A DNA stretch of 64,000 nt from Dendronephthya gigantea (taxonomy: Eukaryota). The DNA lies in contig NW_021163015.1 in NCBI RefSeq assembly GCF_004324835.1, forward strand, positions 2,952,323-3,016,322. The letters are read 5' to 3'. The notes below the pieces were generated by a model, which ran no database searches, was not told the origin of the DNA, and saw nothing but the letters and a program-made list of their open reading frames with translations. Shown here piece after piece: positions 6,599 through 57,454 of this stretch. Numbering within the stretch: position 1 is the stretch's first letter; each line of letters begins with the position of its first letter. A program made the translations under genes and the position numbers.

Positions 6599-8825
6599 TT
6601 CTGAGGGAAGTCGCCTATTCATCAATTCTGATATTTGTTTCTAAACAAACACGCTTTTTGTCAGTACTTTTTTTGTGATTAACTAAACTGACCAGCTGCC
6701 TAGAACAGTAGAACTAGCTATATTTTAATAATATTAAATATTATTTATATTTTCACACAACAATCACACATAAACACCGTAGTCAACGCTCTGGCATCCA
6801 TTTTGAAGAAGCAAATCAAGACAGTCCAATTTCAAATCGCCTTGTCATGAAAAATCGCCTTGGAATTTGACCTAAATGGCCTTTTAAAAGAGTTCGGCTT
6901 GTACGCGGTAAAAAATAAGTGCCCATTTCGCGAAGCGTGTGAAAATTTTAGTACTGATTTTTAGGGCTAAATTTCATTGCTGGCCATTGGTTGCCAAAGA
7001 AAATGCATTTAACGATATAAAGAGTTAACATGTTTTAAGAATTAAGTTATAAATCCAGTCCAAACAAAGCGGTATTTGGTCGCGGTTGAAGCGACATGAA
7101 TAATTGAAGAGCGACCACGAACTTCATCCGGACACAATTTCGCCACACGAAATCATCTCGATTGTGCCCAAAACACAGTGTTTTCACTCATATACTTATA
7201 AATCAAGTATTCCCTTATATACGTATGCCTTCATTTAAAAAAAAAATACCCAAAAGCCATAGATTTCGCTAAACAAAGCCCACAAACGCAATAAACCCCC
7301 ACATCACAGTCCACACAATACGCCACTATTGAGCTCATATTTAGTTATTTACAAGCAAAAATGAGCGCTTTTATAACTCACCTTTCCCCAAAGAAATTAC
7401 GTCTAAATAAACCTAAAGATATGTAGTTCACCATAAGCATACAAAAGAAGCGGCTCGCCTTTGTTTAGATGATAGAAATAAGCATTACTTTCTACATATC
7501 AACTTCCAAAAACAACCTCCATTTTGCTTGTCTGCGGGAGTTTGAGGGCCAGCAGTCGACATTGGGGCTCAAACTTGTTGTCATGGTGATCACGAAAAAT
7601 ATGCGCAGATGAGATCATTCAGAAGTATGTGAAGCATTATGGTGTAAGAGTTTGTATGAGTGATATCACTTGAATATTGCACATTCAAGCTCGTTTTAGG
7701 CTGATTTTTAAATGAAGCAGCCCAAGGAACCCGCTTCCTGCTGATATAGTCAGACAATTATATTACAATGAGCTGCAAAATAGAAAATAAAACTGATTGA
7801 CGGACATGCGCACTGCCCAGTTTCCCCGTCTGTCACAATCATAGAAGATACAAAGAAAAATATCTTATATAAACTTTTCGCGAGAAAAAAATACATGGAC
7901 CTGGCAACCTTTGACGTGATACACGTGGTTATAGGAGGTCTAAGGGCGGTGTTCACATTGCAAGGGGGTGCCCCCCTGCTGCAGCCTCCCTTATTGGGGG
8001 GCGCCCCGTACGCCTATGCTTTTGCGACAGTCTTCAAATTTCTGCCTAAATGAAGGAAAAAAATACCCTAAAACGCCGTCAACGAAGTCAACAACGTAAT
8101 GCCATCAATCAATGGTTCCGGTGTATAATTAAATAATAATATAACCAATGTTTTTACTTGAACTGTGCTAGAATTGCAAGTTCCTACAAACAAATTGCGA
8201 ATTCCTACAAACATATTAAACCCAAATGAGCTTGTATCATTTCAAACACACAAGATTGCAAAGGAAAGGGTGTGCATTGCCAAATATGATGATCAGCAAA
8301 GTCATATGCCTATCTATAACCACATCATTTTTTTCACTCTGCATGATGGGTATCACTGACATTTCATATCGGTATTCATGTCTTTATGACAAAGAACTAA
8401 ATACTTGTACGTCAGGACAAACATTTTTTTGTAAAACCATTAGCTCGTTGAAGACAAGAAATGCAAAAAATGCGAAAAATTATTTTTGCGCACAATTTCC
8501 GACATCTTCCGAAGATGGCGACCAACTTTTGAACGATGACTTTCGACATTTTGTTGTTATTGTTTTGCAGTGTTGTTTTGGAACGAAACTCGGAAACTGA
8601 ATGAAAGCAAAACGGAAGCTGTATCAACTGCATGTTGTTTGAAGAGATTTGACAGAAAATTGTGTCAGTTTTGCAACTAAGAATCCAAGATTATACAGCT
8701 CATAAAAAATTATCCTTAGTGACTAAAAGAAACACTTTTATATATAAAGGTGTATCGCTACTGACGCTACATTAGCCTACCTACCTGCGTGTTGTGATTT
8801 GCTTTAGAAGCTAAGCATATAATAA

Positions 8826-10689: not shown

Positions 10690-10935
10690 TCTTTCAGAAT
10701 TAACAAACAACCAACAATCAATCCTTCTACTATTTAAACGGTTAAAAGCTTGGTATATATGAACAAGTAATTAGTGCCTGGAGGAGTTTGTAAAAATAAA
10801 CGAATAGCTTAAAATTGATTGACAAACAATCAATCCTTCTACTATTTAAACGGTAAAAAGCTTGGTGGTATATATGAACAAGTAATTAGTGCCTGGAGGA
10901 GTTTGTAAAAATAAACGAATAGCTTAAAATTGATA
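10690..10935. repeat. Tandem duplication, 2 copies of ~122 bp
   Basis: The block 'caaacaa[c]caatcaatccttctactatttaaacggt[t/a]aaaagcttggt(gg)atatatgaacaagtaattagtgcctggaggagtttgtaaaaataaacgaatagcttaaaattgat' occurs twice head-to-tail, with a few substitutions and indels. Confidence 0.8.
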
Positions 10936-12918: not shown

Positions 12919-13270
12919 TGTAGCGTTTATTGTGGGTTGTACTTTGACTGCGTGATCGAAATTTGGCGGCTTCGCATTTATGCTACAAATTATTGACACG
13001 TCTCCCTGCGAATGTAATACCTCACACATCTAGATATTACCCGTTTACTGTTAAACTCATAGATGCATTCTACTACTTCTAACACGATTTCCTGAGAAAA
13101 ATATGGATATCGCGGAAGAAATACGGAGGCAGTTTTACGTCAACAAACGTCCCGTCGGTCCCGAGCAAAGTCCCGAGTCTCGTGTCATGTTCGCGTGAAA
13201 AACTCGTGACCCCGAATTAACTTAAAAATCAAAACGAAACAAGTTAAACACGCAGCACGCACGCGGCGAG

Positions 13271-13440
13271 CAGAAAAATTTTTTGGGATCACTTGAAGGC
13301 TTGGTTACCAAGCACTGATCTATAGTTCTTACTGGACTAACATTATTAGCAACCTTTTACTTTCAGACACTGAGCTATAGTTTCACTGGACTAACATTAT
13401 TAATACCCTTTTACTTCCGGTAGTCGGCAGCGCGCTACTT
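13271..13440. repeat. Left terminal inverted repeat of the MULE-like element (contains internal direct subrepeats 'actggactaacatta')
   Basis: Aligned by eye to the reverse complement of 20760-20927. The subrepeat '…ctgagctata[g/t]tttcactggactaacatta…' is duplicated within each TIR. Confidence 0.8.
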
Positions 13441-13689
13441 CCGGCTTCAATTTTTGATCTACATTGATCTTCATTCTCCAGCAACCTCGCAAGCCAAGCT
13501 TTTCTACCTTACATACGCTCCATGATTTTACTACACAGTTTATACTCAACTGTAATATCGAAAGACGAAGCGCGGAAACAAATGGCGTGAAATCAATACA
13601 TTTTAGAACTGATTTAAACGAGGTAAACTCCCATATTATTTTTTCGGAGCATCTGAATATAGTCAGATTCAAGAACAGCAGCATGAATG

Positions 13690-14660
13690 AGGCATTTAGT
13701 TCTATATAAGATGTTCATGACCTAATAAGCAAGACTCCGGGTAAAATATGCAAAAATGCCCCCCATATTATAGGGCCATATATGTTCTTCAGTGTTCCTA
13801 GTTGTACTCAAGTATTGCCTTGATATCATTGGTCATCTTGGTTATATTATTGTTTTACAGACAAAAGTTTATGCATGTTAGGGAGGGATGATAGGGTTAG
13901 GGAACAACAATATTACCCTGACCATCGAAACTACACACACAAATCCCCCATCCCCTAGGGAAAGTTTGGTAAGTGAATCACCTATTATGCCCCACATTTC
14001 CCCAGGGTAGGGTTCCCTTTCACATTAGTGCATTAAGATATTCTTTATATGATACAGGTACAGCAGCATGATAACTGCAGTTAGTTCCATAAAATGTTCA
14101 TGACCCATTTGTCTTGAAAAAAGGGACGTAGAAGAAGACTGTTTAAATTATAATTACAGTATCTGTTTACGTTAAGATATTCTTGACATGATAGCAGCAG
14201 CATGATTACAGCATTGTGTTTCATAAAATGTTCATGACTCAATTGTCTTGAAAAAATGGAAGAACAAGAAAAGGAGACTGTTAAATATTTGTTTATGTTG
14301 CTGTGTGGTGGATCAGTGATTGATCCAGCCCTGAATTTTAGGGGAATGCACCAGGTTGATTTGAGTATGCATACCTGGGTCTTGGTGAAATGCTTTTATC
14401 AGCATTCTGATGGCTATCTGAAGACAAAATTGACCTCAGAAAAGTACTGCAATTGCTCATATCAATTTTCAATCCCACAAATGCCTACACTCTCCACGAA
14501 ATACCATATAATGCAACAGTTTAGCTGTATTTTAGCTACTAAAATCCAACACTTAACCAAAGTTTGTACCTCCTCTGCAGAGGATCCACCACTATGTTGA
14601 AACATTCTTTATATGATGCAGGAACTACAGCAACAGATGGAAGTTGTTTCTCCAATGACA
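13690..14660. repeat. Subterminal internal repeat array inside the element (3' non-coding region of the transposase gene)
   Basis: A unit of about 130 bp recurs at ~14035-14150 and ~14165-14290: '…aagatattcttt/gacatgata.cag.agcatgat.ac.gca.t…cataaaatgttcatgac.caattgtcttgaaaaaa.gga…'. Partial copies occur at ~13690 and ~14595. Confidence 0.6.
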
Positions 14661-14709
14661 TCCTATTTTGACAAGTCTATTCTTTGAACATTAAATGTTA
14701 CTCTTCACT

Positions 14710-17700
14710 TTAACGTGTATGTCCAGCGTTTGGCCTATTTAAATTAATATTCAGTGAAAGGTTTCTTTTTCTGTTTGGCTCTATTTTTCTTTTCCTAGCA
14801 GGCATTGTGCATTTATCACTTTTCCTAAAAGTCGCCTTGCGACCTGAAGGCTGTGCGAGTGAAGACTTTATACCTGACCGACGGCGCGATATTGCAGTTG
14901 GCTGTACTCTAATTCTCTTGTTTGCACGATGAAGTATTGGTAACATTTTGCAATTTGTGTTTCTGCCAAATGAGACATATGCGGTTGAGAGACTGTTGAT
15001 TGGGGCTTGTCCTCTTGCTTTATTAACGATTTTCTTATAGGTTTCAAGGTACTTGCCGTAGCATTTCACAAAATTTGGATTTCCACTGCGTAACCAAAAT
15101 TCGATGTCACTGGATACTTCTTTGTGGAGTTTGATAACGTCCTCTAGGCTTGTCTCTTGCTCTTCGTGTGTCATATTTGAACATTCAGTTTCTGTGCTAT
15201 TGGGCTCTTCATTTAATGGCACATGTATATCTCTTGCTTTCTCATCAAGAGCCTCCGGATGTGGAATCACCGGTTTTGTCGAATCGAACTTCTTTTGGTG
15301 AACATCTGCGAATTTTTCTGCGCACAAGTCCGGATGGTCTCCTATTGCCAATACCGCTAGCTTGTACTTGTCCATGTGATTTGTTGGAATAAAGTTGCTG
15401 TTGGAGACGCCGTATTTTAGTGCAACTGCAGCTTGATGGGGACAACTGTTTCCATTTTCACCTGCTGGGCAAGAACAGATTCCGATTGACGAGTTCACCT
15501 CGTAAATCTTTCCCTTCTCCTTTCTACTTGGCACATAAAACTTAAAGGGTTCAGTGCTGTCTTGCGTGATTGTGGCGAAATCAACTGTGCTAGCATTTCT
15601 ACCAAAACATCTGGATGCAATGTGCAAATTTTGAGGTTTTCCAAAAGCAAGCGATAGTAACTTACGTTGAAAATACTTGTCTAAGTCCTCAACGATAAAT
15701 CGAAATAGTTCCACCAAGTTGTATGCCCTAATTCGTCGTAATATTATGCACTTGAAGATGAAAATCATAGATTCCGTATAATTATCCGTGTTGTTACCTC
15801 TAGTGATTAGTTGTTTGCGAAGACATAAGGCCCATTCCGACTTTCTTGCCATCGCATTCTTGATGTACTTAAGAAAAATTGCATATTTCTTTGCTGTCTT
15901 GTCTTCTTTTAGTTCTGCGAATAGTTTGTTCAATATGTTTTCGCTTTCAGAAAAGACCAAATTCTGAATCAATTTCATGAGCGGTTTTCGGTCACATAAT
16001 TCTATTTTATGTTTTGACTGCCATAACCATCTCCACGCTGCTTGTAGGAAATGAAATATACAGAGAAGTAATTTTGTTGAACCCCAGGTAGTATTTAAAG
16101 CGCCCCTCTGGGCCGCGTCATCATCCGTTAAGCAAATCCTTGGCCCCTCTTGCGTACCTCGACCACCAAATGCACCCTCTGGAAATAAACTTTTTGCTTT
16201 CCCCAAACAGCTCTCGACTGTTTGCTGGGAGTTATCAGATGTGACCCAGACACATAGTGGAAGTGCTCCTGAAGGGTGGTGCGTACAAAGAAAGTATACA
16301 GGATTGTTGTGTCGGTCAATACTGGCTGATGCATCCAAGAACACCATCTCCCCAGCTTGAGGTAAAGAATGTACCCTAGCCATCAGTGGGGTAACAACAG
16401 CAAGGATTAATGGTTTTTCGGTGCACTTTGTCTTCTCATAACGTTGAACAAAGCATTTACCACCGTCCATAGAATGTCGTTTGTTATAATCTTTCACAAC
16501 ATCTTCCAACTCCAGGAACATATCCACCCCATCGGACGCTCCCTTTGTTTGCTTTCTCCATTTCTCAAACATCCTTCTTGCGTCAGTTGCAGATGGGCAA
16601 TATCGCCGGTCGGCGAGAAGCGTCATTGTCGATGGATCATTCATAAGTAACGACTCGTGATGGTGAAAAGCTTCTGCTGCAGACATGCCGCTCGCGAAGT
16701 AATCGTTAAATGTCTCCACCGTCGCTGGGAGGATTTTAGCAAAGCTCTGGAGATGAAAACAGTCGATACTATGATTGTGAGTCCACCACAACTGAACATG
16801 ACATACGTTACCAACAGAATTTGCTGGTAATAATTTAACAGACATCTTGCTTGGGCAATCTGTCTTCTTATCACGTGCTGTTGATAGCAAGTGCAGTTCC
16901 GTATCATCTGTAAAGGTATTTTTGAGGTTTGTGCCCAACCTCTTTTGACGTTTTTTTGAGCGTGTTTTTTTGGCGTCTTGTTGTTTTTTCGTCAATTTCT
17001 TCCTTTTACATTGGCAAATGTACCACTTTGTCATTAAGACTTTCACGCCTTTCCGTTGGTATCCTCCTTGCGTGTTATATTTTATATTGGTTGTTGAAGT
17101 CAGTTCCGAGACCCATGTTTTTACTTCTTCTATTGAAGTTATATTAGCAATGGTGAAGCATACTTTAAAAGCTTCTTTCGGTGCCCCTGTAAAACACTCT
17201 TTCTCCAGTTCTTCATATTCGTCAAGCTTGTACTTATAGTTTGATGGTAAAATGTTTTGTACATGCGTTGGTAAATCCGAGCTTTCGTTGCTTATTTTCT
17301 CGGTACACTCATTCACATCTGCATAGCAATGATCGTGGATGATGGAATCATGATTTGAAAAAGATAATCCTGCTGTATTTTTTGCTCTTTCGCTGTTACA
17401 AACGCCAGCTGGATCTTGAACACCAGACAACTTTACTTTTTTCGTCGGTTGAAAATCGTCGTCCGAGTCTCCGCAATGTTTCGGCGAGTTCGGACTTGAC
17501 TGCTCCAATCTCGAGGGCGTGTCTCTTCGTTTTACCCCTTTTCTACAACCCGCAGGCAAATCAGGAATCTCGTATACATTGTCATGTTCATGAGATGGAA
17601 GTTTAATTTCTAAATGAGGATCCCCAGCACTGATTTCCAAAATCAGCGAATACCTAAACGATTCAATATCTCCTTGAGTGAAATCCAGCGGAAGACCTAA

Positions 17701-19677
17701 GGAGATATGTTGAGCCCACTTCGCAACAAATACACCACAGTCATCACCATTTGTCTGCTGACTTAGATGCCGACTTGGTAAGATATAGAAAAGCCATTCT
17801 TTCCAGTCAAGAGAGAAATCTTGTGTTTTCGATATGCGTTGGGAACATTCCAAGAAATGTTGCATTCTCTGAAAACCCTGTCTTGCAGAAGCTCCTTCAT
17901 ACAAGGAGTCGAGGTACATCATAGCTCTTAACTGAGGGAATGTGGCCAATAAGCACCAGTGATTACCAAAATTTACCGCACCTAAAATTACATCACTTGA
18001 AAGAATACCATCATACATACTGTGGTACTGATTGTTTTTGAATGTCTCCATCGAAGGAGTTGTCATTTTATGAAATACGTCACTGTTTATTGTCCGCACG
18101 ATGTTACCAAAAGCTTTGCATTTCGTTTCTAGAATCCACATATAATGATTAAGTACGAAGTTATTTAACCATGATCCTGGAAGAAGACTTAAAAGATCAC
18201 TTGAAGTATATCCTTTCAATCTTACATGAGTAGGGGGAGCTTGATCTTCATGCGCTTTAAGTTTGGCATTCTTTACCTGTTGCTCTGACAGTGGCGTATA
18301 TACCAATCCCTTCTTGCTTCTTTCAGTGCGACAAACTCTTGGTAAAGAAAAGGAAGTAGACGGATGATCAACGTAATAATTTGGCGGGATCGAGTCTATT
18401 TCAAAGGATACCTGGTCTGGGGGAGCATTAGAAGTCGTGGCTGATTTATTTATCTTTCTGCTACTGTTTTTCTCGTACACCAAAATATACGCTTCTTGAT
18501 TCAGTGCCGTGAATTCCGATATCTTCAAAACTTGCGAATCGTTTAAGGAATACCATTGGCCATTGCGAAGAACACATGCTGTATAGTGACCAGACTTTGT
18601 TGTACTGCCGTGATGGGAAATAACAGCCACAAGATTGTATTGTTCCTCCAAGTTAACTTCCACATCTTCCATTTCAGATTGCATCTCTTTCATTTTCAGT
18701 ACCCCTGGATATTCGACAAACGTTTTAATTTTCCGTCCCTCCTTTGAGAACCGCAACAACTGAACACAGAAGGCATCCGGAAGTTTTTCGAACACAGTGC
18801 GTTTATACGCCTCCGTTTTCTTTTTACACCTATTTACAAAAAATGATATGACTTTTGCACCCCAAATATTGTTAGCCTCTTTTCTAATTTTAGTATCAGT
18901 GATGAGATCTAAGTTACTATATTGAACAAAGAAAAACTGTGTACTAACAGGGTTTAGTATACAGTACCTATCGCATTCATATTCATCATCCAAATGTTCA
19001 GGCTTATTCAACATCTTAATTGCAGTCTCCAAATTTGTTCCCTGCGAAGGTGTAGTTAATGTAAATTGAAAATCATGGACCAAGCATATGAACTTATTGC
19101 ACACATGCATGTGCATATGTATGTAACCAACTATTAGAAAACACACTATTTCATTGTAGTGAGTATGCAGGATTACATAATGCCTTGGTATTTTTGCTAA
19201 ATTTTTTAAATGTTTCAATTTCATCTGTCCTAGTATAGAAAGAACTAGCAAGTAAAACTGGATCACATTTATAGACTGTAAAGATCTGACCAAAATAGAG
19301 ATAAGTGGGTAGTATTGTTCTTTAGGACACCAATGTAATACCTTTTTTACAGGCAGAGGGAGCAAACTCTCAATGCTAGTGCACTTTGAGATATGACCAC
19401 AGAGAAGACACGTAACCTCACTCCTCAGGCTAAATTGGAAGGATTTTAAAAAAGAAGTATCGCAGTGCGGTGGAACAATTCCATTCTCATAATACTCCTG
19501 AGCAATTAGATTCAGTGCTTGCGTGTAATCCTGGAAAAACTCTGCGGCACATTGCTGCATTCCAGGTTGAAAGCTTTCATTAATGTTTGGCAACTGTGAT
19601 ATCAGTGAAGCTGGCCTTAAAATTCCATGACAGTTTTGTGCCTTATAACCATCAATAAACAGTTTTGTGCTGCACAA
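14710..19677 (-). CDS. Element-encoded giant protein (main exon, 1655 codons): USP deubiquitinase core + Ulp1/SENP protease + putative WRKY/GCM-like zinc finger + MULE DDE transposase + SWIM zinc finger
   Basis: - USP (C19): QQD box (MQQCAAEFFQDY), C-x-x-C (VTCLLCGHISKCTSIESLLPLPV), LRFSKEGRKIKTFVEYP, His box (YNLVAVISHHGSTTKSGHYTACVLRNGQWYSLNDSQV…AYILVYEK).
- Ulp1 (C48): LPGSWLNNFVLNHYMWIL…GNHWCLLATFPQLRAMMYLDSL…QQTNGDDCGVFVAKWA.
- Putative zinc finger: WYICQCK…CHVQLWWTHNHS.
- MULE transposase: MVFLDASASIDRHNNPVYFLCTHHPSGALPLCVWVTSDNSQQTVESCL…ICLTDDDAAQRGAL.
- SWIM: CSCPAGENGNSCPHQ. Confidence 0.85.
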   Translation of the reverse strand: MCSTKLFIDGYKAQNCHGILRPASLISQLPNINESFQPGMQQCAAEFFQDYTQALNLIAQEYYENGIVPPHCDTSFLKSFQFSLRSEVTCLLCGHISKCTSIESLLPLPVKKVLHWCPKEQYYPLISILVRSLQSINVIQFYLLVLSILGQMKLKHLKNLAKIPRHYVILHTHYNEIVCFLIVGYIHMHMHVCNKFICLVHDFQFTLTTPSQGTNLETAIKMLNKPEHLDDEYECDRYCILNPVSTQFFFVQYSNLDLITDTKIRKEANNIWGAKVISFFVNRCKKKTEAYKRTVFEKLPDAFCVQLLRFSKEGRKIKTFVEYPGVLKMKEMQSEMEDVEVNLEEQYNLVAVISHHGSTTKSGHYTACVLRNGQWYSLNDSQVLKISEFTALNQEAYILVYEKNSSRKINKSATTSNAPPDQVSFEIDSIPPNYYVDHPSTSFSLPRVCRTERSKKGLVYTPLSEQQVKNAKLKAHEDQAPPTHVRLKGYTSSDLLSLLPGSWLNNFVLNHYMWILETKCKAFGNIVRTINSDVFHKMTTPSMETFKNNQYHSMYDGILSSDVILGAVNFGNHWCLLATFPQLRAMMYLDSLYEGASARQGFQRMQHFLECSQRISKTQDFSLDWKEWLFYILPSRHLSQQTNGDDCGVFVAKWAQHISLGLPLDFTQGDIESFRYSLILEISAGDPHLEIKLPSHEHDNVYEIPDLPAGCRKGVKRRDTPSRLEQSSPNSPKHCGDSDDDFQPTKKVKLSGVQDPAGVCNSERAKNTAGLSFSNHDSIIHDHCYADVNECTEKISNESSDLPTHVQNILPSNYKYKLDEYEELEKECFTGAPKEAFKVCFTIANITSIEEVKTWVSELTSTTNIKYNTQGGYQRKGVKVLMTKWYICQCKRKKLTKKQQDAKKTRSKKRQKRLGTNLKNTFTDDTELHLLSTARDKKTDCPSKMSVKLLPANSVGNVCHVQLWWTHNHSIDCFHLQSFAKILPATVETFNDYFASGMSAAEAFHHHESLLMNDPSTMTLLADRRYCPSATDARRMFEKWRKQTKGASDGVDMFLELEDVVKDYNKRHSMDGGKCFVQRYEKTKCTEKPLILAVVTPLMARVHSLPQAGEMVFLDASASIDRHNNPVYFLCTHHPSGALPLCVWVTSDNSQQTVESCLGKAKSLFPEGAFGGRGTQEGPRICLTDDDAAQRGALNTTWGSTKLLLCIFHFLQAAWRWLWQSKHKIELCDRKPLMKLIQNLVFSESENILNKLFAELKEDKTAKKYAIFLKYIKNAMARKSEWALCLRKQLITRGNNTDNYTESMIFIFKCIILRRIRAYNLVELFRFIVEDLDKYFQRKLLSLAFGKPQNLHIASRCFGRNASTVDFATITQDSTEPFKFYVPSRKEKGKIYEVNSSIGICSCPAGENGNSCPHQAAVALKYGVSNSNFIPTNHMDKYKLAVLAIGDHPDLCAEKFADVHQKKFDSTKPVIPHPEALDEKARDIHVPLNEEPNSTETECSNMTHEEQETSLEDVIKLHKEVSSDIEFWLRSGNPNFVKCYGKYLETYKKIVNKARGQAPINSLSTAYVSFGRNTNCKMLPILHRANKRIRVQPTAISRRRSGIKSSLAQPSGRKATFRKSDKCTMPARKRKIEPNRKRNLSLNINLNRPNAGHTR

Positions 19678-20491
19678 TATACAGGGTTGACCTGTCCATA
19701 AATTAAAAATAAAGTCAATTAGACTTAGATCAGCTGTGTAAATGAGAAATATATTAACTTGTTAAATAATTTATTTATGGGCAAATAAAGCATTATTCTT
19801 TTGGTTAAATGAATGTATTTAGGTAAATAATTTTCATTATTTTCCCTCTACTATGATAAAGTGGAGTTTGTGTTTAGTACCCATTAATATCTGATCACTC
19901 ACACCCTCTGACTAACACCTATTACTGACTGCATTGGGCACATTTATTAAATATATACAAGCAATGTTCATTGTTACAGAACACTTGAACAACATTCTTG
20001 GCCAACATTTGACAAAAACCACAAAATTTTTTATAGCAAACAGCATGTATGGGAGCTTGAATTTTGATAAAGAATGAACGTTGGGTTGTTGACTAGGCAA
20101 ATTGATGTTGAGAGTGTTTGTTGTTTGTGCGTTTTAAAGAACTAATGATGCGTTCAACCAGATGTTGCGTGAACGAGTTGCGTTGAAGTGTGTCAGTAAG
20201 TTCTTTCAGATCGTTGCTGAGGCCATCTTCGGTACTGTCGTGCGTTTCCTGTTATGTTGTCAATCATGTTTGTAAATATTAATCTATTCCTTGAGTATCA
20301 CCTAACCTGTATCATATTTTACCTTATATATTTTACGATGTAAATAACAAATTCATTCGCACAGAATATGACTGTTTGCTATAAAATTTTTATTATTCAA
20401 CGTTTATTAAAAATGCTTACATATAGTTCTTATGACAACCCAGAATTACGAAAAATATAGACGAAAAGAACGGACAATAAAATATGTAAAT

Positions 20492-20645
20492 TACCGGATC
20501 TTTCCTGCAGACAACGAGTCCGGTTGTGTTCCATTTGCAAGAGTCCATTTCCGTATCGTTTAACAGATACTAATGCTTGAAGAGTACTATTAGCAAAGCA
20601 AGTGTTACCCAAGTTTTGTATTCCTTTTGGAAGTAAAGTAATCAT
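20492..20645 (-). CDS. First coding exon of the element gene: USP catalytic Cys box
   Basis: MITLLPKGIQNLGNTCFANSTLQALVSVKRYGNGLLQMEHNRTRCLQERSG. GIQNLGNTCFANSTLQAL is the canonical USP Cys box. The exon ends at a GTAATT donor. The likely acceptor 'ttatggacag|GTCAACCC' sits just upstream of the main ORF at ~19687, and joining there restores a continuous USP domain (Cys box then QQD box). Confidence 0.7.
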
Positions 20646-20759
20646 TTTTATTAATATTGAGAAAAAGCGAACGTTTACAAGAGAATCTCGAACAGCCGAA
20701 GTGAAATTTAAATATTTCGCGGGAAATGTAAATTTGGCGCGTTTTAATTTTGGTTTAAA

Positions 20760-20927
20760 AACAGGAAATCCAGATACACCGGAAGTGATACTGTATTCTA
20801 ATGTTAGTCCAGTGAAAATATAGCTCAGTGTCCGGAGGTCAAAGGTTGTTATTAATATCCGTCCAGTGGAAACTGTAGATCAGTGCTTAGTAACCAAGTC
20901 TTCAAGTGATCCCAAAAAATTTTTCTG
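20760..20927. repeat. Right terminal inverted repeat of the MULE-like element
   Basis: The reverse complement matches 13271-13440 ('cagaaaaattttttgggatcacttgaag[g/a]cttggttac[c/t]aagcactgatcta…'). Confidence 0.8.
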
Positions 20928-21235
20928 CACGCGGCGAGCCCATCCCCTTGAACTATATGAAAAACTGGATGACTTTTCTTGTAAAGTCTGAACCGGCTCA
21001 TTCGTTGCACTGGTTGCACTAAAAAAGTAGACTGTGCTGTGATAAAATGAGAAATTTACAGTGATAAATGGTATTTTCTCAACAGACCTCACTCTGCCAA
21101 GATGGTTCGTTCACCAAAATGCTGGAAATCAAGTCATAGGGACTCAAAAATACAGAATTTTTTTTGCAATAGGTTTTACAGACTCCCTACAATTACCCCA
21201 TCTTTAAATTACCAATTTCCACTTTGGATCATTTT

Positions 21236-21312
21236 TATCAAAACGGTTTATTCGACCATGGTGGACTGTGGAGTATATCAGAAAACGGTATATTCGACCA
21301 TGGTCGAGAGGA
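21236..21312. repeat. Imperfect tandem repeat (~27 bp x2: aaaacggt[t/a]tattcgaccatggt[gg/cg]a[c/g])
   Basis: Seen directly in the sequence. It gives rise to the repeated 'KTVYSTMV' in the ORF at 21102-21332. Confidence 0.6.
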
Positions 21313-24300
21313 AGAGTAAAAGCTGCCCCTAAACCATATATACCAAGACCTTTTCGCAAGTCACCACAATATACTATATTCTTTACTCTTATTTATCAAC
21401 CTAACTTTCTTCTTTCTGTCTATTGATAGCCTAAATGCCAGGGAACTTGGATGCACCCCTAATGCAAGGGGTAAAACTTTGTGGTATTGGACTTTGGAAA
21501 CATACGAGTTTAATAAAGTAAATAAATTAAGGCAAAGTAAAGTTTAATACTAAAGTTCATCATTACTCGATATTTGACATGACAGAAATAAATAATTCGG
21601 TTTAAGTTTTTTAATCATAATATTTTTCGCGTGATCGCCAACGCATAGTAGTGCGGCATACGTGTGAACAGTTGGGTGCAAGCCATGTGACAAAAATAAA
21701 ACAATAATTATATTGGCTCATTTATCCCATAAAATTATTCCTGTTCGCTTTTCTTGTGAGAAAAGGTTTAAAATAAAAAACTCCAACTAAAGCCAATACA
21801 GCGCTGGTTTATCAATAACATACTACATTCCATATGTCCTCAGAATTGAATTGGACCCCCAAAATTGAATGATGTGAAATGTGAATAATAATATGCTCGG
21901 AGATGTTCCAATATAACCCGGGAGCAGCGTGGCAGCGTCTTCAAACAACTTAGCATCAAATGTGGTATAACACCTGCTAAAGTAGACAAAATCACTTCTC
22001 GACGTTTCGACCTGACGGCCTTCGTCACGAGGGTTGCTCGGAGATGATTGCATATTTTTCTTAACTCTATATTCTGTAATTCACATTTCACGTTTGCAAT
22101 TCGTTCGTTACTTCTTCGTGACGTGTTTACGCAGTTTTGAGCGGCGCAAAAATTATTGGAATAGTTTACATTCTAATAAAGAATCTGTGCCGACAAAGCA
22201 TCCGGAATCTCACAGCGGACAGACGCTTGAAGCTGTGATACGACATCCTGGATCAAGGCAGACGGACCCGTATTTGTCCTTTTGCCGATTTTTCAGCACT
22301 TCTCAGTTCGCCCTGCGTCAAGATTTTCCCAGGCGGTAAAAATAGAGCAGAACAATACTCTGCTATATAGAATATTAATACACTTCCACCAAATGTTAAC
22401 TCCCCCCCTCACGAAGACGCTCTAAGTAAGGAAAGACGCTCATGAACTATCGATAGTTTACAATCATCATAAGAAATATAAGCAAAAAAATTCGATGATT
22501 GTTTTAAAAAAATTTTAGAAAGTAATCCCATCCACTTCTAGTAACTTCTCGTGGTTCTCAAAATCTTCGCTTCCAGAAATTGTGAACTTTAGAATTTCGA
22601 TCAAATAAAAAAAAGAAAAACCGTCGAAGATCCCTAACTTTTAGAAATTGCTTTATCTGTGGTGCTAACACAGTCAGTAGGGGGTTAATCTACAAACTGG
22701 ATGCTGCATTTACCTCCATAGTATTCCTATTCCATAGTATCCCTAAGCAATTCCTGGGAGTACCTTTTACTGAGTTGGGTTGAGTGTAATTTGTCGAATT
22801 ACCAAGAAAATAGCTTTCAGAGACGGTCAGAAAATCGAGAAATTGATTGATAATTTATTAAACGGCTCTAATGGCCCACGCGTGAGCATTGTCGTTAACC
22901 GTTGTCCTCAGTTGAGTGGGCTGGGCTCATGCTGGATCGATATTGTGATTTGCATGAATGTATAGTATTGATGCTCTAAGCATAATTTCTTGTCACCTTA
23001 CCGACACGTTTTGAAACTTCGTTGGACTGCACTGGACGATGATGTGGCAAAACATAAACTAATTCATGTTGTTCTATATCATGATAGCGTATTGCATGCG
23101 AATTAATGAACAGACATTCCGACATGAGTCGATCATAGTACAATACGCCATTTTAACTTGCATATAAGGGCATGTTAGTTTAGTAAAGTGTGTGGATTGC
23201 TTCCTGTGAAATTAAAGGTCAGGGTTGTCAAACAAGCCTAGACATGATCGGCGCTTAATAATTATCAGTAACGATGATCTTCAGCTCTAGAAACGTGTCT
23301 TTTGTGTGAATTTCTTCGTATTTCGAGGCACTGGGGTATCAATGAATGACTTTGACATTTGTTTGAAAACATCGAAATATGAAACATTCCAAATCTGAGT
23401 AAACGAAAGCGAGTCTCGGTAAACAGAAATTAAGCGTGTAAATATAATAAGCCACTGAGTGCGCAGACAACATGCAAATATAGCTATCATTTATGACGTA
23501 GTTAATTAATCGTGGTTCATTAACAGGATCCGGTCCGTTTGTATGGAATGACAGGAGGCCTATCGAAGCTCATGTCGATTACAATCTGGCTGTTTGAGAG
23601 AAAAAACGTGCTTGTATTTTAGTTTTGCACTTTTGATGACGCGTTATCTTGAAATCAAGATATTCTAAATGAGAATCTTGAATTTGAGACCAATTTTTGG
23701 ACAATTTTTTATCCACAGCAAGACACCTTCGGCTGGAAGAGTTGTTTGTTAAATTGATAATTTGTTTAGACTTGTCTTATTTTAATAGAACCTCGCCCAT
23801 CCGTTTTTACACTGAATTCTAAATTAAGCGAATAAATTTTGTGTGGGTGTAGAAGCGAACAGTGAGCTGCGTTTTGCTGTTCTTTGCCACGCTTTTGTTA
23901 CTTGTTATTGTCGCAGTTTTGTTCTTTTTCCCACGAAATTAGAACTATGTCGGTTACAATTCCATTCGAAAAGAAAATTAGAACAATTTTATTACAATAA
24001 TTGACCGCGTGTTTATAGTAAAGAAAACAGAAAATGATCCGACTTTAATTATTAATATCGACTTAAGCATGGTAGCACTGTTTTAGCATATATGACTGCC
24101 AAATATATGCCGGTCAATATCGAAGATAAAATCAGCATTATCGTTTGTACACGTAATTTCAAGGGTAGAACGTTGGGGCATACCTACCGGTGATTAGGGG
24201 GAAATCGATTTATCGCGTGAGTCTTTGCAATAATTTACGCAAAAGCGGGGATAAACCATGCGACTGCTGAAGCTTCTCTGACTGTCTCTCTGACTGATAT

Positions 24301-25089: not shown

Positions 25090-26562
25090 ATGATGCAATT
25101 CATGAGAAAACCTGCTGAGTATCATAAGTCGAAGTATACATTCATGGAATCCAAGCCTAGAGCAGAATCAGTCTCTGGTCCGACCAGCCCACGACGAAAG
25201 CTATCTTCGCCGAGCAAAGATGAGTCATGGAGAAGTGACATGTTGAAAGCATTGCAGAACAGCGCTAATCCGGAACCAATTCGAATTGCGTGCATGAAAA
25301 GCAATGTTAATGGACCTGCTCATTTTGGGGAGCTGTTTCATGGTACTCTAACAAGAGATGAAGTCACAGAGTTGCTATCTGGGGGAAATGGGCGATATCT
25401 TGTTCGAGAGAGCAATAGTTCACCAGGAGATCACATACTGTCCTTCAGTACTGGTGGCAATATACTTCATTATAAGCTGTTCTATGATGCAGAAACAGCT
25501 AAATATCACACTGAGTCTGACGAGAAGACCTACAATTCACTGACCGAACTGATGGTCGATATCTTGAACATGCTACGTGTCATCCATCAGTATGGAAGTC
25601 AGATAAACGGATGTGGAATCAGCGGAAATGGAGTGGAAAAAACAACAAAAACAAAGCGTCCATCGTTCACAAAGCCACATAGTTTTCGTATTCATCAGTA
25701 TATGCATCCCAAATGGTGTGATATCTGTCACGCATTCATGTGGGGTCTAATGCATCAGGGAATGAAATGTCAGGACTGTGGCTTAAATGTTCACAAACAT
25801 TGCGTCAAAGATGTTGAAACCAACTGCGGAACCTGTACAGTTGAAACCAGAAATAGATCAGAGTCAAAGACCAAACGTCGAGGCAGACTATCTGTTGATC
25901 AAGGCAAATCTGACGAACTGTATGCTCTACTTGCAAAACACATTACATGTGGCTATCAACTGGAATGTCTAAAATATTTGTCAAGTCTTAAGCAACCAGT
26001 GGCAAACTTTGACTTAGCTACCTTAATGAACCCATGTTACTGTGATAACTGTTGCCACTTGAAGGATTTGGACACTCCTCTATGTAAAACTGGGTCGCCA
26101 CCCCAGGCATACTCGTTACCTCTGGGTTGGTGTCGATTTTGTTTGAACACACCAAAGGGGATGGCTGAGCCGGCGTCGTGGAATGTTGCATATTATTCAT
26201 TGTCTAAAGAAATGCTGCCGAGTATTCTCGAGAAAGGTTTGGGCAATAAAGCAGATTTTTTGGGCTCTGATGGAAAGATCTTTGTGAAGCTCACACCATC
26301 AATCATTTGTGCAGACCTTGACTCTCCTGTTGTAGAATATCAGGACTCTGACTCAAATGAACTCAAGGTAGCAAAGATTGCTTTACAAGTATATGTTAAA
26401 CCTGGGTCATTTCAGACCATGGGTAGAGCTGGGATCTCAACGGAGGAAATTGATCCCTATTTCAAAAGCACGGACATATACTGGGTTATACGAGATAATA
26501 ATAGTATAATACCCTTCGGAATTTTGATTAAGAGGATGAGAATGACTTATAGAAAGTCATAA
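25090..26562 (+). CDS. Intronless gene: SH2 domain + C1 (phorbol-ester/DAG-type) zinc finger + C-terminal PARP/ART-like domain with degenerate catalytic triad (tentative)
   Basis: Single 490-codon ORF.
- SH2: FHGTLTRDEVTELLSGGNGRYLVRESNSSPGDHILSFSTGGNILHYKL (FLVRES-type).
- C1: HSFRIHQYMHPKWCDICHAFMWGLMHQGMKCQDCGLNVHKHCVKDVETNCG (H-x12-C-x2-C-x13-C-x2-C-x4-H-x2-C-x7-C).
- C-terminal: AYYSLSKEMLPSILEKGL…GSDGKIFVKLTPS…DIYWVIRDNNSIIPFGILIKRM aligns to the PARP signature (HGS…ILxxGL…GKGIYFA…S.S…EYIVYD…YLL), with H replaced by Y and Y replaced by F. Confidence 0.7.
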   Translation: MMQFMRKPAEYHKSKYTFMESKPRAESVSGPTSPRRKLSSPSKDESWRSDMLKALQNSANPEPIRIACMKSNVNGPAHFGELFHGTLTRDEVTELLSGGNGRYLVRESNSSPGDHILSFSTGGNILHYKLFYDAETAKYHTESDEKTYNSLTELMVDILNMLRVIHQYGSQINGCGISGNGVEKTTKTKRPSFTKPHSFRIHQYMHPKWCDICHAFMWGLMHQGMKCQDCGLNVHKHCVKDVETNCGTCTVETRNRSESKTKRRGRLSVDQGKSDELYALLAKHITCGYQLECLKYLSSLKQPVANFDLATLMNPCYCDNCCHLKDLDTPLCKTGSPPQAYSLPLGWCRFCLNTPKGMAEPASWNVAYYSLSKEMLPSILEKGLGNKADFLGSDGKIFVKLTPSIICADLDSPVVEYQDSDSNELKVAKIALQVYVKPGSFQTMGRAGISTEEIDPYFKSTDIYWVIRDNNSIIPFGILIKRMRMTYRKS

Positions 26563-52382: not shown

Positions 52383-53163
52383 ATGGCGACCGCCGTGGAC
52401 GAAAATGCTGCCAATTTGACAAAGACATTTGACAGTAAAACGACTGCAGATCTTGAGAGAGTGACTGACTATGAAGAAGATAAAGAGATAAGTCCAGTGA
52501 ATATTGGAAATGTAAGTGATGTGCAGCAGAAATAAATATATATTTCATTATTTTCAACATATCTGAGACTGACTGAAGCCGAAGGCTATAAAGAGTCTAT
52601 TACAGACGTTTGTGGCCCATTCACTGAATATTCTACTAATGATTTAAAATAGGCAATTTCATTTGTTGATGACACATATTCGAAAGAAAAGGCCGCCAAA
52701 GCAGAACGGTAAATACAAACGAAGCCTTTATATTAGTTTTAAATTGAATGAATTGATTCAACTGAATCAACTCATATATGGCGGAGATATCAGATATACT
52801 TCAATATTTTTGGTTTCAGCGAAAAAGAACTGTCGAAAGTTGCCATAAAGAAAGAACATGTTGATTTAATCGTAAGTATTGCAACAATGTGAGCCATTTT
52901 ATGATATCATGTGAGTGAATGATACAGCTTTACTTTACCCCCGATTTCATTCATGTTTACTTAATCCCCGATTTAATTCATTTTTACTTAATCCGCGATT
53001 TAATTTGTGTTTACTTAATCCCGATCACATTCGTGTTTACTTAATCCCCGATTTCATTCGTAAACAGATGAGAGAGATGGAAATCTCGAAGTCTGCTGCA
53101 GAATGGAGTCTAAGGAGTCATGGCGGGGATGTTGTGAAAGCATTGATTTCACTAACAAATTGA
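52383..53163 (+). CDS. HYPK: Huntingtin-interacting protein K (HYPK, NAC/UBA-like), 4 exons
   Basis: Exons 52383-52512 (MATAVDENAANLTKTFDSKTTADLERVTDYEEDKEISPVNIGN), ~52650-52706 (AISFVDDTYSKEKAAKAER), ~52820-52870 (EKELSKVAIKKEHVDLI), ~53066-53163 (MREMEISKSAAEWSLRSHGGDVVKALISLTN*). Matches human HYPK (…ADLERVTDYAEEKEIQ…KELAKVTIKKEDLELIMTEMEISRAAAERSLREHMGNVVEALIALTN). Confidence 0.85.
52915..53062. repeat. Minisatellite (~30 bp unit x5, 'tttacttaatccccgatttcattcgtg') in HYPK intron 3
   Basis: '…tttaccccc gatttcattcatg tttacttaatccccgatttaattcatttttacttaatccgcgatttaatttgtgtttacttaatcccgatcacattcgtgtttacttaatccccgatttcattcgtaaacag'. Confidence 0.8.
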
Positions 53164-54229: not shown

Positions 54230-57200
54230 TTGCTACAGTTCCTATCTCGCAGAATGAAGGCAGCGATCAGTATCTTTGTTCTCTACCATGCACTCGTCTC
54301 ATCGGCGTTTGATCTCTATGGTTCTATGGACGACGCTCGAAGCGCAATCATGTCTTTTTACGACTCAACGCACGTCGCACCCCGTGTTCTGGCAACGGAG
54401 AAGCCAACAGTGAACACCCCAATACCAGGTAGTTTCGTCACAAGTCTGGCAGAAGTACCAGACGTTATTCGCCCTGTTTCTGTTAAAAAATTTTCGAAAC
54501 GGAAACACACTATGGTAACATCAATGGGTGGAACGGGTCCTAGGTTTAGACCATTTCCACGGCGAAAATATAAACATCATTCTGTCATTTCTGCGTGGAG
54601 AAGACCTGCTCCTAAGTTCAAACCACTTCTCAAACCAATTCCAACCGTCGCTTTGAGAACGTCTTCCCCAGTTGTTCGCTCCAAACGAGTCTCGTTGAAC
54701 AAGTTCGCTGAAGCTATCGAAGATATTGAGAAAGCCTTGGCCGATGCGCAAATTGTGAGTCGCGTCAGGCACGACGCAACTAGGTTGAGGAAACTAAAAG
54801 ATCTTATCAAAACAGCTGTTGAGAAAAGAAGTTATCGTTTTGCGCGTAAGGCAATCGGTGAAGCGATGTTCACGATTAGAAAAATGAACGAGCAAAGGTA
54901 AGAATTGGAATTGCAAATGTGAAATATAAATGCATATTACATGAAAACGGTGTTAGATGGGCTGAACATGCCCTCGAACATGCCCTAGCTTTAAGCCTTG
55001 GCGTTTGTTCAAAAGTCGAAGTTGCGTTTGTATTTTAAGGTTGTCCTTTGAGTCATAACAGGCTAGCCTAGTTCTTACCAATTGTGTTGGCCTGTGCCTC
55101 AAAATCGTCTTATATCTAAAGTCTGGTTTCGACGCATTTCTGTCGAGACAAATGCAACTAAGACAATATAAGATGATAATCGGAAGGCGATATAACTAAA
55201 ACGAGGCTTATCATACTGTTATGTATTTGCTCAATTACACCTGACAAAAAAGGCCTAGGCTGGCGGGCAGGCAATTGATTATTTTAATGACTGTATATTT
55301 TATCAAGGAAAGCAACTGGACGTAGAAAGAGAAACATTGTCCTGTCATCAAAGGATTTTCTTGGCAGCGTTAGGCGGACAATTGGTGTATCGGCTTTCAA
55401 TGATCTTCTTGCGATGCAAGGTCAAGTCACACTCATGTTTGCCATCGACGATACGGGCAGCATGCGTGAGGAAATTGAAGCCGCAAAAAGAATCGCAACG
55501 TCTATCGTGAATCAGCAACGAGTGGAGCCGGTTGATTACATTCTGTCACCGTTTAATGACCCAGGTAATTAGCATTAGTTGCGGTCAAGTCAGTTCTACG
55601 CATGTGCTGTGTTTATGGTACACAAATAGTCAAATATTAACCTTGAAGTGCACAACATTGCTTAGTCAGACACGATGCTTCTAAATTACTTGTCGAATCT
55701 CTTGCGGCGCATCTAAGGTAACAGTTTTTTTGGTGTTTTTTTGTTAGGTACTGGTCCAGTAACCTATTGTTCAGAGACCGAAAAAGATCGATTTGTGAGA
55801 GCCATTGCTTCTCTTTCACCCAATTCTGGGGGCGATTGTCCTGAACTGGCATTCCAAGGAATGAGTGACGCAATCGACGCTGGACCTCAGCTAGACTCAC
55901 CTTTGTACGTATTCACGGATGCCGGACCAAAAGACGCAACCGAAGACAAAGTACGATACGTTAAAGAGACTGCACAGGCCCAAGGACTTGTCGTTAATTT
56001 CTTTGTTGTTCAGAATACTGCGTGTACACAAGGGGTAGACATCTCGTCGTTTCACGAAATAGCGCAAGCCACTATGGGTCAGGTTTATGAATTGAAAAAT
56101 TCTCAGGAACTTGATGATCTTCAAGGGTTGACAGCAACCTCGCTTGGAGGGACTGCTGTCGTAGCAAATGCAGTCAGTGATAATCAATCTTCGCGTAAGA
56201 AACGGAGCTCTTCCCAAACTGCCAATTCGTATTCAATCACGGTTGATGACTCTATAGACACCCTGGTTGTATCCGTGACTGGTGACAAACCCAAAGCGAA
56301 TATGTGGAGCGTGTCGCTGACCTCGCCCACGGGAACGATTGCAGGCGTCACTACCACAAGTAACTTAGACCAAGGAACCGTGTACCAGATATCCAAACCG
56401 AATGTAGGGATTTGGAATTTAGGAATCAATGCTGATCCAAATGTGAAGTATGATTTCTTTGTGAAGGGATCCAGTGCGGATAACATCGATTTTGAAGTTT
56501 ACTTTGTCAGGACCACAGTTAGAAGAGGAGTGTCTACTACAGTTCCCATCACTGCACCTTTACTAGGTAAGACTATGACCTTTGTGTATAGCTTGCGTGA
56601 TTCTTCGTTATATGACAAGATAAGTAATAAATCAAAGATGATCTGAGATAGATTACACACCACAGTTAATAGATTACACTGAGTGTGGTATTTCTGTGAG
56701 ATATTGTATGTTTATAGTTGGCAATAAATAGGATAATAAAATTTTTATATGTGGAAGAAAATATGGCGATTACTTCAAAATTTATCTTGGTCTTGTGTAG
56801 TAGTTTTTTGTTGTAGTAGTTTATTGTATAACTCCTATGAACAACTCTTCAATAATTGTGTTCATTTTCATTTCAGGCATCGAAGCTGAAGCTATCCTGA
56901 CTCTGGGTGGCGTGGGCCATGTCGACCAAAGTACTCTGAGAGCAGAACTCGTGGACTTGTGCGGCGATGTCATAACGCCAACCAGATCCGTCTCTTTCAC
57001 ATCGAAAGACAAAAAAGGGATCCGCCATTCTTTCAAATTCTTCCCACCAAATCAAGATTTCAAAATTAAGTTGAAGGGGCGTACGAAGAAAGGACATGCA
57101 TTCGAACGTATTTCTCACTCTCCCATCAAACCTGAAACTCTGATTGTTAAAGTTGTGTTCGCACGAAACGATTACACTATGACACAAGGTGGAGCAGGTT

Positions 57201-57454
57201 ATGTAATCTTCATGATCGAAAACTTTGGAGAGAGCGAGGTTGTGGATATAAGCTCGTTTGGTAGCATGGGAACAGTCGAGAGACAATCGCGAAGCACGGC
57301 CCTAGCTCGTAAAGATCGTAGAACGTCGTTTTCCGTCTCATTCCGAGGAAAAACGAAGGCAACACGAGGTTTGACGGTTACGATTGTTGTGTCGGTTAAA
57401 GGACGAAATTCAGGCTCCAAATCTGTCATGTCTGTTCCATTGTTAGTTGTCTAG
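54230..57454 (+). CDS. Secreted VWA-domain protein with signal peptide, basic propeptide and furin (RRKR) site; 4 exons
   Basis: - Exon 54230-54898: MLQFLSRRMKAAISIFVLYHALVSSA… (signal peptide), Lys/Arg-rich.
- Exon ~55297-55567: ATGRRKRNIVLSSKDFLGSVRRTIGVSAFNDLLAMQGQVTLMFAIDDTGSMREEIEAAKRIATSIVNQ… (start of the VWA domain, MIDAS-like DxTGS).
- Exon ~55745-56567: GTGPVTYCSETEKDRFVRAIASLSPNSGGDCPELAFQGM…YVFTDAGPKD…FFVVQN….
- Exon ~56870-57454: …IEAEAILTLGGVGHVD…VMSVPLLVV*.
All junctions are GT-AG. Confidence 0.65.

Follow-up and report, generated by a model that had tools for sequence, protein, structure and literature searches.

The 64,000-nucleotide (nt) stretch of the octocoral Dendronephthya gigantea analysed here (contig NW_021163015.1 of assembly GCF_004324835.1, positions 2,952,323 to 3,016,322 of the forward strand, hereafter the window) contains a pair of inverted ends, and the question it raises is whether these delimit a transposon, to which superfamily this belongs, where exactly it begins and ends, and whether it may still encode what it needs to move. 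A sequence-only reading had proposed a DNA transposon of the Mutator superfamily with terminal inverted repeats (TIRs), bounded by CAG...CTG and flanked by a target-site duplication (TSD) of 11-12 bp. The superfamily was borne out, with transposase homology and protein fold agreeing on it independently, and both the termini and the TSD had to be revised. Taken as a whole, the evidence is very probably best explained by a structurally intact, apparently autonomous Mutator-like element (MULE) that occupies positions 13270-20928. The coordinates of its parts are listed in Table 1.

The 20-mer CAGAAAAATTTTTTGGGATC, which had been noticed as a perfect inverted match, occurs exactly twice in the window, at 13271-13290 on the plus strand and at 20908-20927 on the minus strand; in shuffled sequences 0.06 matches are expected by chance, even when up to three mismatches are allowed. 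The inverted ends were upheld by a local alignment in which 13271-13421 was compared with the reverse complement of 20778-20927; it gave 151 nt at 86% identity with one 1-nt gap (130/151 when the outer G and C are counted), close to the approximately 160 bp of similarity previously estimated. The perfectly matching stretch is in fact longer than 20 nt, since the outermost 28-29 nt of both arms are the same. The arms measure 151-152 nt, and the TIRs of related copies range from 47 to 235 nt. The left tip includes a conserved 26-nt terminal motif, GCAGAAAAATTTTTTGGGATCACTT(G/T), which contains an imperfect A5T6 palindrome. These terminal 26 nt are kept across subfamilies that share only about 53% amino acid identity (consensus GCAGAAAAATTTTTTGGGATCACTTT; L016, one of the related loci, has GCAA).

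The internal duplicated motifs that the sequence-only reading had described are also real. Tandem Repeats Finder reported a repeat at 13313-13416 with a period of 54, 1.9 copies and 88% matches, and a motif scan found a core of about 24 nt, CACTGA-N-CT...ACTGGA, twice per arm, pointing inward, and nowhere else in the window. The first core begins 44 nt from the tip in all close copies, and the subrepeats of L005 amount to 4-5 copies with a 31-nt period. Such an architecture fits a transposase-binding region, as had been suggested, and the subrepeats may well serve this purpose. The 3' non-coding region of the element contains a different repeat, unlike the TIR subrepeats: at 13666-14270 there are 3-4 copies of a 44-76-nt direct repeat (CAGCAGCATGA...ATAAAATGTTCATGAC). 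A scan of Joint Genome Institute (JGI) metagenome contigs with the TIR tip gave six matches, all due to chance, with nothing similar beyond the 21-mer, and the same scan of viral contigs gave none.

The exact position of the ends was established by comparison with related copies, which were obtained through their proteins and provided 18 ends and seven complete copies (the window, L001, L005, L013, L015, L016 and L017). The base lying just outside the proposed terminal CAG is G at 18/18 ends, of which 16 read GCAG and two, both from L016, read GCAA. The outer G and C therefore belong to the element, and related copies share the same terminal nucleotides instead of ending at different ones. Close relatives have moved recently: L001 and L002, two loci of one assembly, contain an identical 1,326-amino acid (aa) open reading frame (ORF) and are 98% identical over 7.7 kb, with unrelated flanks. 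Their alignment starts exactly at the terminal G, and the edge of the element was placed there. The G/C termini at all ends, together with the start of homology between L001 and L002, indicate that the element extends from 13270 to 20928 and that its TSD is the 9-mer ACGCGGCGA. An internal satellite-like array of units of about 46-53 nt (L001 6100-7600, L002 6300-7600), with no counterpart in the window copy, explains in part why the L001 copy is as large as 14.3 kb. The Oculina locus L014 was dropped as a copy, because it has no TIRs and just poly-A/T inverted matches.

When the termini are taken as GC...GC, an exact 9-bp TSD, the signature of a staggered cut, is found in six of the seven complete copies: ACGCGGCGA in the window, TGGCCGCCG in L001, ATGCGGATG in L005, GTGCGGTTC in L013, GCTGGCACA in L015 and GTGCCGACA in L016, each matching at 9/9 positions. 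In the seventh, L017, the duplication reads (G/T)GGCGGATC and matches at 8/9. The longer string on which the sequence-only reading had based its TSD, CACGCGGCGAG(C), was correctly seen: CACGCGGCGAG is present on both flanks (13260-13270 and 20928-20938), and the direct repeat including neighbouring bases reads GCACGCGGCGAGC. It was as a TSD of 11-12 bp, flanking an element at 13271-20927 (CAG...CTG), that it proved wrong. This alternative would account for the 11-mer being identical on both sides in the window and in L013, and some Mutator families are indeed known with TSDs of 10-11 bp (PMC6446971, Table 1). However, the 11-bp reading holds for these two copies only, whereas in the other five of the seven (L001, L005, L015, L016 and L017) the inner 9 bp match and the mismatches fall precisely at the first and last positions. 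An 11-bp appearance needs nothing but a C before and a G after the target, and in the window and in L013 the target-adjoining bases happen to be C and G, so that they mimic the terminal bases of the element. Since, in addition, G and C stand in these extra positions at every end, we consider the longer TSD very improbable. A TSD of 9 bp is the canonical Mutator value (PMC2774946, PMC6446971), and the classification of the element is thus firmer than it was by the original argument.

The transposase leads to the same superfamily. The C-terminal part of the encoded protein (about 830 residues) gave 52 homologues at E <= 1e-5, many of them with PF10551 (MULE) and PF21056 (ZSWIM1/3 RNaseH-like). 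Homologues at 50-86% identity come from cnidarian-type assemblies, the stony coral Oculina patagonica and D. gigantea itself, and more distant ones (24-35%) from sea urchin, thrips and bryozoan also carry PF10551 and PF21056. In an alignment of 16 sequences, reaching down to 24% identity, PF10551 was matched by 14/16 members and SWIM by 8/16, and the residues D286, D356/357, C377, H380, W453, E473 and C572/C574/C583/H585 are invariant. In the numbering of a 1,655-aa ORF of the window, the invariant catalytic residues are D1115 (FLDAS), D1185/D1186 (LTDDD), C1206-x2-H1209, W1282 and E1302 (NYTES), all intact in the window copy, and the C1206-x2-H1209 motif lies 21 aa past the second D. This is exactly the set of hallmarks given for MULE transposases (PMC5499845), in which a DDE triad is accompanied by a (C/D)(2)H motif, 15-45 aa beyond its second D, and by a conserved W that precedes E, and the spacing is likewise that of Mutator. 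The SWIM pattern CxCx8CxH is likewise invariant (C1401, C1403, C1412 and H1414), with the Pfam SWIM match of the window protein being sub-threshold (E 0.02). Further invariant residues on the N-terminal side, C888...C941...H967-x-H969, resemble the WRKY/FAR1 type, an assignment that no Pfam model match supports.

An AlphaFold (AF2) model built from the family alignment had a predicted local distance difference test (pLDDT) score of 80-93 over residues 150-630. The top five Foldseek matches of this model were all ISCth4 transposase chains (E 2e-8 to 1e-5). ISCth4 belongs to the IS256 family of enzymes, the acknowledged bacterial relatives of the Mutator superfamily (PMC7780238). Weaker fold matches included Hermes, RAG1 and the P transposase, and the (C/D)(2)H motif and W are common to hAT and MULE (PMC5499845), as could be expected if the element belonged to another superfamily with long TSDs, such as hAT or P (8 bp). 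TSD, Pfam matches and ranking of the folds all disagree with such an assignment, which has a negligible probability in our opinion. When the PDB was searched with a sequence profile of the transposase alignment, only spurious EGF-like matches to the Cys-rich SWIM region were returned. MULE membership is therefore indicated by PF10551 homology, the DDE/(C/D)(2)H/W residues, the 9-bp TSD, long TIRs, zinc and SWIM fingers and an IS256-like fold.

The gene lies on the minus strand and, in our model, consists of four exons that encode 1,564 aa. The predicted protein comprises a complete USP36-like deubiquitinase, a SENP/Ulp1-like protease, a C..C..HxH zinc finger, the DDE core and a SWIM finger. 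The three introns (20494-19692, 19341-19042 and 18967-18830) all have GT-AG borders and correct phase, and exon 4 is collinear with the uninterrupted 1326-aa ORF P0001. In the ORF list the gene appears instead as two frames, one of 1,655 aa (14710-19677) and another of 71 aa (20430-20645), the latter carrying the Cys box of the Pfam UCH family. The 1,655-aa frame was rejected as the protein, because exon 1 is missing from it and two introns are read as coding. These two, introns 2 (19042-19341, 300 nt) and 3 (18830-18967, 138 nt), are in frame and stop-free, hence their inclusion by the ORF finder. Such an absence of stops is improbable by chance in AT-rich DNA; it may be a coincidence, or the introns may be retained in some transcripts. 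A TATA-like sequence, TATTTAAA, can be read at about 20712-20705 and is a putative promoter element; a sigma-70 promoter/terminator scan of the 5' region was disregarded, being meaningless in a eukaryote.

The splice model was validated by the ubiquitin-specific protease (USP) domain of its product. Pfam analysis of the large frame detected UCH (the USP family, C19), Peptidase_C48 (Ulp1/SENP) and a weak MULE match, and the spliced USP covers Pfam UCH positions 2-254 of 254 with 156 bits. Its alignment with the catalytic domain of USP36 runs from end to end (E 1.9e-34), and the closest USPs outside the family are host enzymes of USP36/USP17 type, with approximately 33% identity. The Peptidase_C48 matches had E values of 3e-9 to 7e-9, and SENP1 and SENP2 structures in the PDB matched the Ulp1 domain (SENP1 with 6e-20 over ORF residues 463-682). 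Across the family, both proteases retain their catalytic motifs: the Cys box, the His box GHY and N/D-D in the USP domain, and HW, YLDS and Q..DCG in the Ulp1 domain. The ratios of non-synonymous to synonymous substitutions (dN/dS) between the window and L001 were 0.08 for both Ulp1 and the DDE core, 0.24 for the C-terminal half of the USP and 0.07-0.09 for the parts of the transposase, values that are approximate because synonymous sites are near saturation. Conserved catalytic motifs and low dN/dS together indicate that the proteases are maintained as working parts of the element.

Mutator elements with Ulp1 have been documented from Hydra, lancelet and plants, as have other transposons with OTU domains; one association of C19 with a transposase is documented as well, in an IS5-like gene of Trichomonas (PMC2836005). 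Because Ulp1-bearing MULEs are already known from those organisms, the element is a new family of a known kind, that is, a Mutator family in an octocoral that is otherwise ordinary. Its novelties are modest and consist of the added USP domain, which makes a dual isopeptidase fusion, and of a central GC target motif, described below. No description of a USP + Ulp1 + MULE fusion was found in the searched literature, with Repbase entries outside the comparison, and the same literature describes Mutator elements neither with the dual-protease architecture nor with a GC motif in the middle of the TSD.

The presence of Ulp1 in the protein also calls to mind a different kind of element. Zisupton/KDZ elements combine a SWIM finger with an Ulp1 SUMO-protease domain, long TIRs and an 8-bp TSD, and the element described here likewise has SWIM and Ulp1 in one large transposon protein and a size of 7-8 kb. 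Its TSD is 9 bp and not 8, however, and no KDZ-type Pfam family was found at E <= 1 in four family members, whereas the same four members matched MULE, ZSWIM1-3_RNaseH-like and, weakly, Transposase_mut (IS256). The best structural neighbour is the IS256-family ISCth4, and the protease precedes the transposase in the domain order. An assignment to Zisupton/KDZ is thus very improbable.

Several observations weigh against an intact and autonomous MULE. The Pfam MULE score of the window protein (21.9 bits, E 2e-4) is lower than the gathering cut-off of 27.6, so that membership rests on relatives, motifs and fold; P0006 (28.2), P0029 (41.4) and P0043 (29.4) are above the PF10551 cut-off, and all match the window protein at E <= 4e-87. 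The splicing is deduced from sequence and homology rather than from RNA, and the function assigned to the USP and Ulp1 domains is speculative. The target motif, chosen post hoc, depends on just 11 sites from several species. In L006, two well-formed ends at 3129 and 16430 lie 13.3 kb apart, and the 9-mers that flank them, GACCGCGTA and CGGCAGCAC, bear no relation to each other. This suggests that two elements are present, that one insertion is nested or that copies have recombined; L006 was retained solely as two single-end target sites. Neither a second copy from D. gigantea nor an empty site was obtained as support for mobility in the host genome: the paralogue P0025 of this species has its locus outside the set of copies compared, and in the search for an empty site through orthologues of a neighbouring SH2/C1 gene, contigs L018 and L019 ended at least about 0.6 kb before the insertion point. 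Finally, divergence between the arms amounts to 14% in the window copy, as compared to 2-7% in other copies, and the copy may consequently be old or have impaired ends.

This last observation, together with the larger number of private changes in the right arm than in the left, is what would be expected if the window copy were a dead relic, or if its transposase gene were nearing domestication (as in ZSWIM and FAR1), and the element were not currently mobile. That the window holds a single copy, and that ZSWIM- and FAR1-named host genes are among the distant relatives, points in the same direction. On the other hand, the 4.7-kb coding sequence is intact, all catalytic residues are present, the terminal 28 nt are perfect in both arms and so is the TSD, and 98%-identical copies lie at different loci in the related assembly of L001 and L002. 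A neutral decay that produced 14% divergence between the arms should also have broken an ORF of 1,564 codons, and the asymmetry of the arms is therefore more likely a family trait. For these reasons we regard a relic or a domesticated gene as unlikely, and retain the interpretation of the window copy as an apparently autonomous MULE.

The sequence-only reading had also remarked on a GC-rich target in an AT-rich genome and had suggested a survey of insertion sites. We carried this out on the related copies, and the GC preference stood and extends to them, in contrast to the TSD length, which was 9 and not 11-12 bp. The 11 target 9-mers, from the seven complete copies and four single ends, average 72% GC, compared to 36-40% for their loci. 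In the orientation of the gene, G is found at position 3 in 9/11 sites, C at position 4 in 10/11 and G at position 6 in 9/11, so that TSD positions 3-6 read GCNG in 9/11 and GCSG in 7/11 sites, against per-position backgrounds of 0.8% and 0.2%. The binomial P for GCNG is about 1e-17, which is highly significant even after a generous post-hoc correction; with a small sample drawn from several species, the motif is nonetheless to be taken as a lead and not as a logo. Regional GC or CpG enrichment was rejected as the cause, since the flanks of ±150 nt are only mildly and inconsistently enriched, and the preference is thus local to the TSD.

Some features of the insertion sites were noted besides. 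About 170 nt on the left of the insertion (13100-13270) are unusually CpG-rich; the CpG observed/expected ratio of the reconstructed site is 1.45, a value within the highest 5% of the window. Such a composition would suit an unmethylated promoter-like region, but no gene start was identified there. A YY1-like box, AAnATGGC(G/C)GCC, lies in or beside several targets: L004 14043-14060, where it reads aaaatATGGCGGCGA followed by GCAG, L001 5128-5141, where aaca precedes the TSD TGGCCGCCG, and L015 14168-14195, where acATGGCCGCCATCTT follows the TSD. The same box is found within the TIR of the L013 subfamily (7790-7807, CCAAGATGGCCGCCA). Such boxes could reflect promoter-proximal targeting or a promoter within the TIR.

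A mechanism for the element can be proposed in five steps, of which the first corresponds to what is reported here and the other four are put forward by analogy and conjecture. First, a single minus-strand gene encodes the 1,564-aa protein with USP, Ulp1, zinc finger, DDE and SWIM. The transposase would then recognise the 26-nt motif GCAGAAAAATTTTTTGGGATCACTT and the inward-pointing subterminal CACTGA..ACTGGA cores in both TIRs of approximately 150 nt. Excision would occur at the GCAG/CTGC termini through double-strand breaks, with hairpins forming on the flanking DNA by analogy with Muta1; such hairpins are known only for Muta1 (PMC5499845) and are assumed here by homology. In the fourth step, the 3'-OH ends would be joined to the target with a 9-bp stagger and gap repair would leave the duplicated ACGCGGCGA, targets presumably being preferred where TSD positions 3-6 form a short GC-rich core, GC(S/N)G. 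Lastly, and speculatively, the isopeptidases, kept by purifying selection, would most likely modify ubiquitin or SUMO on chromatin, on repair factors or on the transposase, with the effect of favouring transposition or countering silencing. A broader joint reading would see an anthozoan MULE clade with a three-enzyme transposase, whose proteases, intact and selected like the DDE core, strip ubiquitin/SUMO marks to act against silencing or to steer repair, and whose insertion at GC(S)G cores takes place often in or near YY1-like ATGGCGGC promoter boxes. This reading can be held only tentatively, and is in our view rather doubtful as a whole.

The window element provides an exactly delimited intact reference copy, with termini, 9-bp TSD and exons, for a family that is at present overlooked or broken up by gene predictors, and the encoded protein has no counterpart among NCBI proteins. 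Its analysis also exposes a general trap in the reading of single copies, namely that a chance match of flanking bases to the termini of an element can inflate the apparent TSD. The fusion of USP and Ulp1 with a transposase and the GC target core are testable leads on the ubiquitin/SUMO control of chromatin and on promoter-proximal targeting by MULEs in animals.

Table 1. Position of the Mutator-like element and of its parts in the window.
Feature	Position	Strand	Remarks
Complete Mutator-like element	13270..20928	gene on minus strand	7,659 bp, termini GCAG...CTGC
Left TSD copy	13261..13269	.	ACGCGGCGA, identical to 20929-20937
Left TIR	13270..13421	+	3' end of gene; tip of about 43 nt, then two 54-nt subrepeats
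Two tandem 54-nt subterminal repeats	13313..13416	+	cores 13313-13336 and 13368-13390; proposed, putative transposase-binding sites
3' non-coding part of element	13422..14709	-	repeat families D1-D4
Exon 4	14710..18829	-	stop codon 14710-12
Exon 4, SWIM finger	15477-15436	-	
Exon 4, DDE core	16335-15772	-	
Exon 4, C..C..HxH finger	17016-16771	-	
Exon 4, Ulp1/SENP-like C48	18291-17632	-	
Exon 4, C-terminal half of USP	to 18475	-	
Exon 3	18968..19041	-	USP domain; GT-AG borders, correct phase
Exon 2	19342..19691	-	USP domain
Exon 1	20495..20645	-	ATG 20645-20643; USP Cys box GIQNLGNTCFANS
5' leader, probable promoter region	20646..20777	-	between right TIR subrepeats and ATG; putative function
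Right TIR	20778..20928	-	5' end of gene; subrepeat cores 20862-20885 and 20808-20830
Right TSD copy	20929..20937	.	ACGCGGCGA

Elsewhere in the window, the ORF at 25090-26559 is identical to XP_028391569.1 of D. gigantea, an intronless host protein with SH2 and C1 domains. Long ORFs are found at 54.2-57.5 kb (54230-57454), and minus-strand ORFs at 57729-59749 contain an RPMNAFMVW motif that looks HMG/Sox-box-like by eye. Two tandem repeats unrelated to the element lie at 10713-10934 (115 nt x 2, 96% identity) and 52929-53061 (27 nt x 5). In the transposon-rich region of L006, a THAP-domain ORF followed by a P-element-type transposase gene (21165-22205) lies a few kb from the MULE copy.

Among known systems, Muta1 of Aedes aegypti (PMC5499845, PMC5225508) is the biochemically characterised animal Mutator, with a mechanistic model of end binding, hairpin double-strand breaks and target joining. 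The two elements are alike in their TIRs of about 145-150 bp with an imperfectly palindromic terminal motif and tandem subterminal repeats, in their 8-9-bp TSDs, and in a DDE core with (C/D)(2)H and the conserved W. Muta1, however, is 3.2 kb long, and its transposase, of 504 aa, has a FLYWCH finger but lacks protease domains, whereas the coral element measures 7.7 kb and encodes 1,564 aa, with a C..C..HxH finger and SWIM in place of FLYWCH; moreover, Muta1 has 9 x 12 bp subrepeats and arms that are 97% identical, as compared to 2 x 54 nt (24-nt core) and 86% in the coral. MuDR/Mu of maize shares with the coral element the 9-bp TSD, long TIRs (approximately 215 bp) and a bias to GC-rich DNA, which in maize extends to the 5' ends of genes (PMC2774946). 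The target consensus of maize Mu, SW::SWNNNNNWS::WS, has an uninformative centre and 50% GC (PMC2774946), while the coral element has GCNG at the centre of the TSD, in positions 3-6; unlike MuDR, it has no mudrB-like second gene and does have protease domains.

As regards accessory proteases, the KI-MULE/VANDAL-type plant elements and the MuDR families of Hydra and lancelet (PMC2836005) also combine C48/Ulp1 with Mutator, Hydra being the cnidarian precedent. The coral element differs from those Ulp1-MULEs in that Ulp1 lies in the frame of the transposase, upstream of it, and is preceded by a complete USP36-like C19 deubiquitinase. MuDR-1_NV (177-bp TIR) and MuDR-6_HM of Hydra (with an OTU protease domain) come from the same phylum and have long TIRs (PMC6446971), and the accessory deubiquitinase-type domain of MuDR-6_HM is OTU, where the coral element has USP and Ulp1. 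It is by their descriptions (PMC6446971, where no TSDs are recorded) that the coral element is set apart from the cnidarian MuDRs, and it may be identical to an existing Repbase family. More distant is the bacterial IS256 family, represented by ISCth4 (PDB 6xg8, 6xgx and 6xgw), with 1.5-kb elements, 31-bp TIRs, 8-bp TSDs, a copy-out/paste-in mode of movement, and 13-16% sequence identity. Zisupton (KDZ), too, has a large protein with SWIM and Ulp1, but it is distinguished from the coral element by its 8-bp TSD and by an unrelated transposase core.

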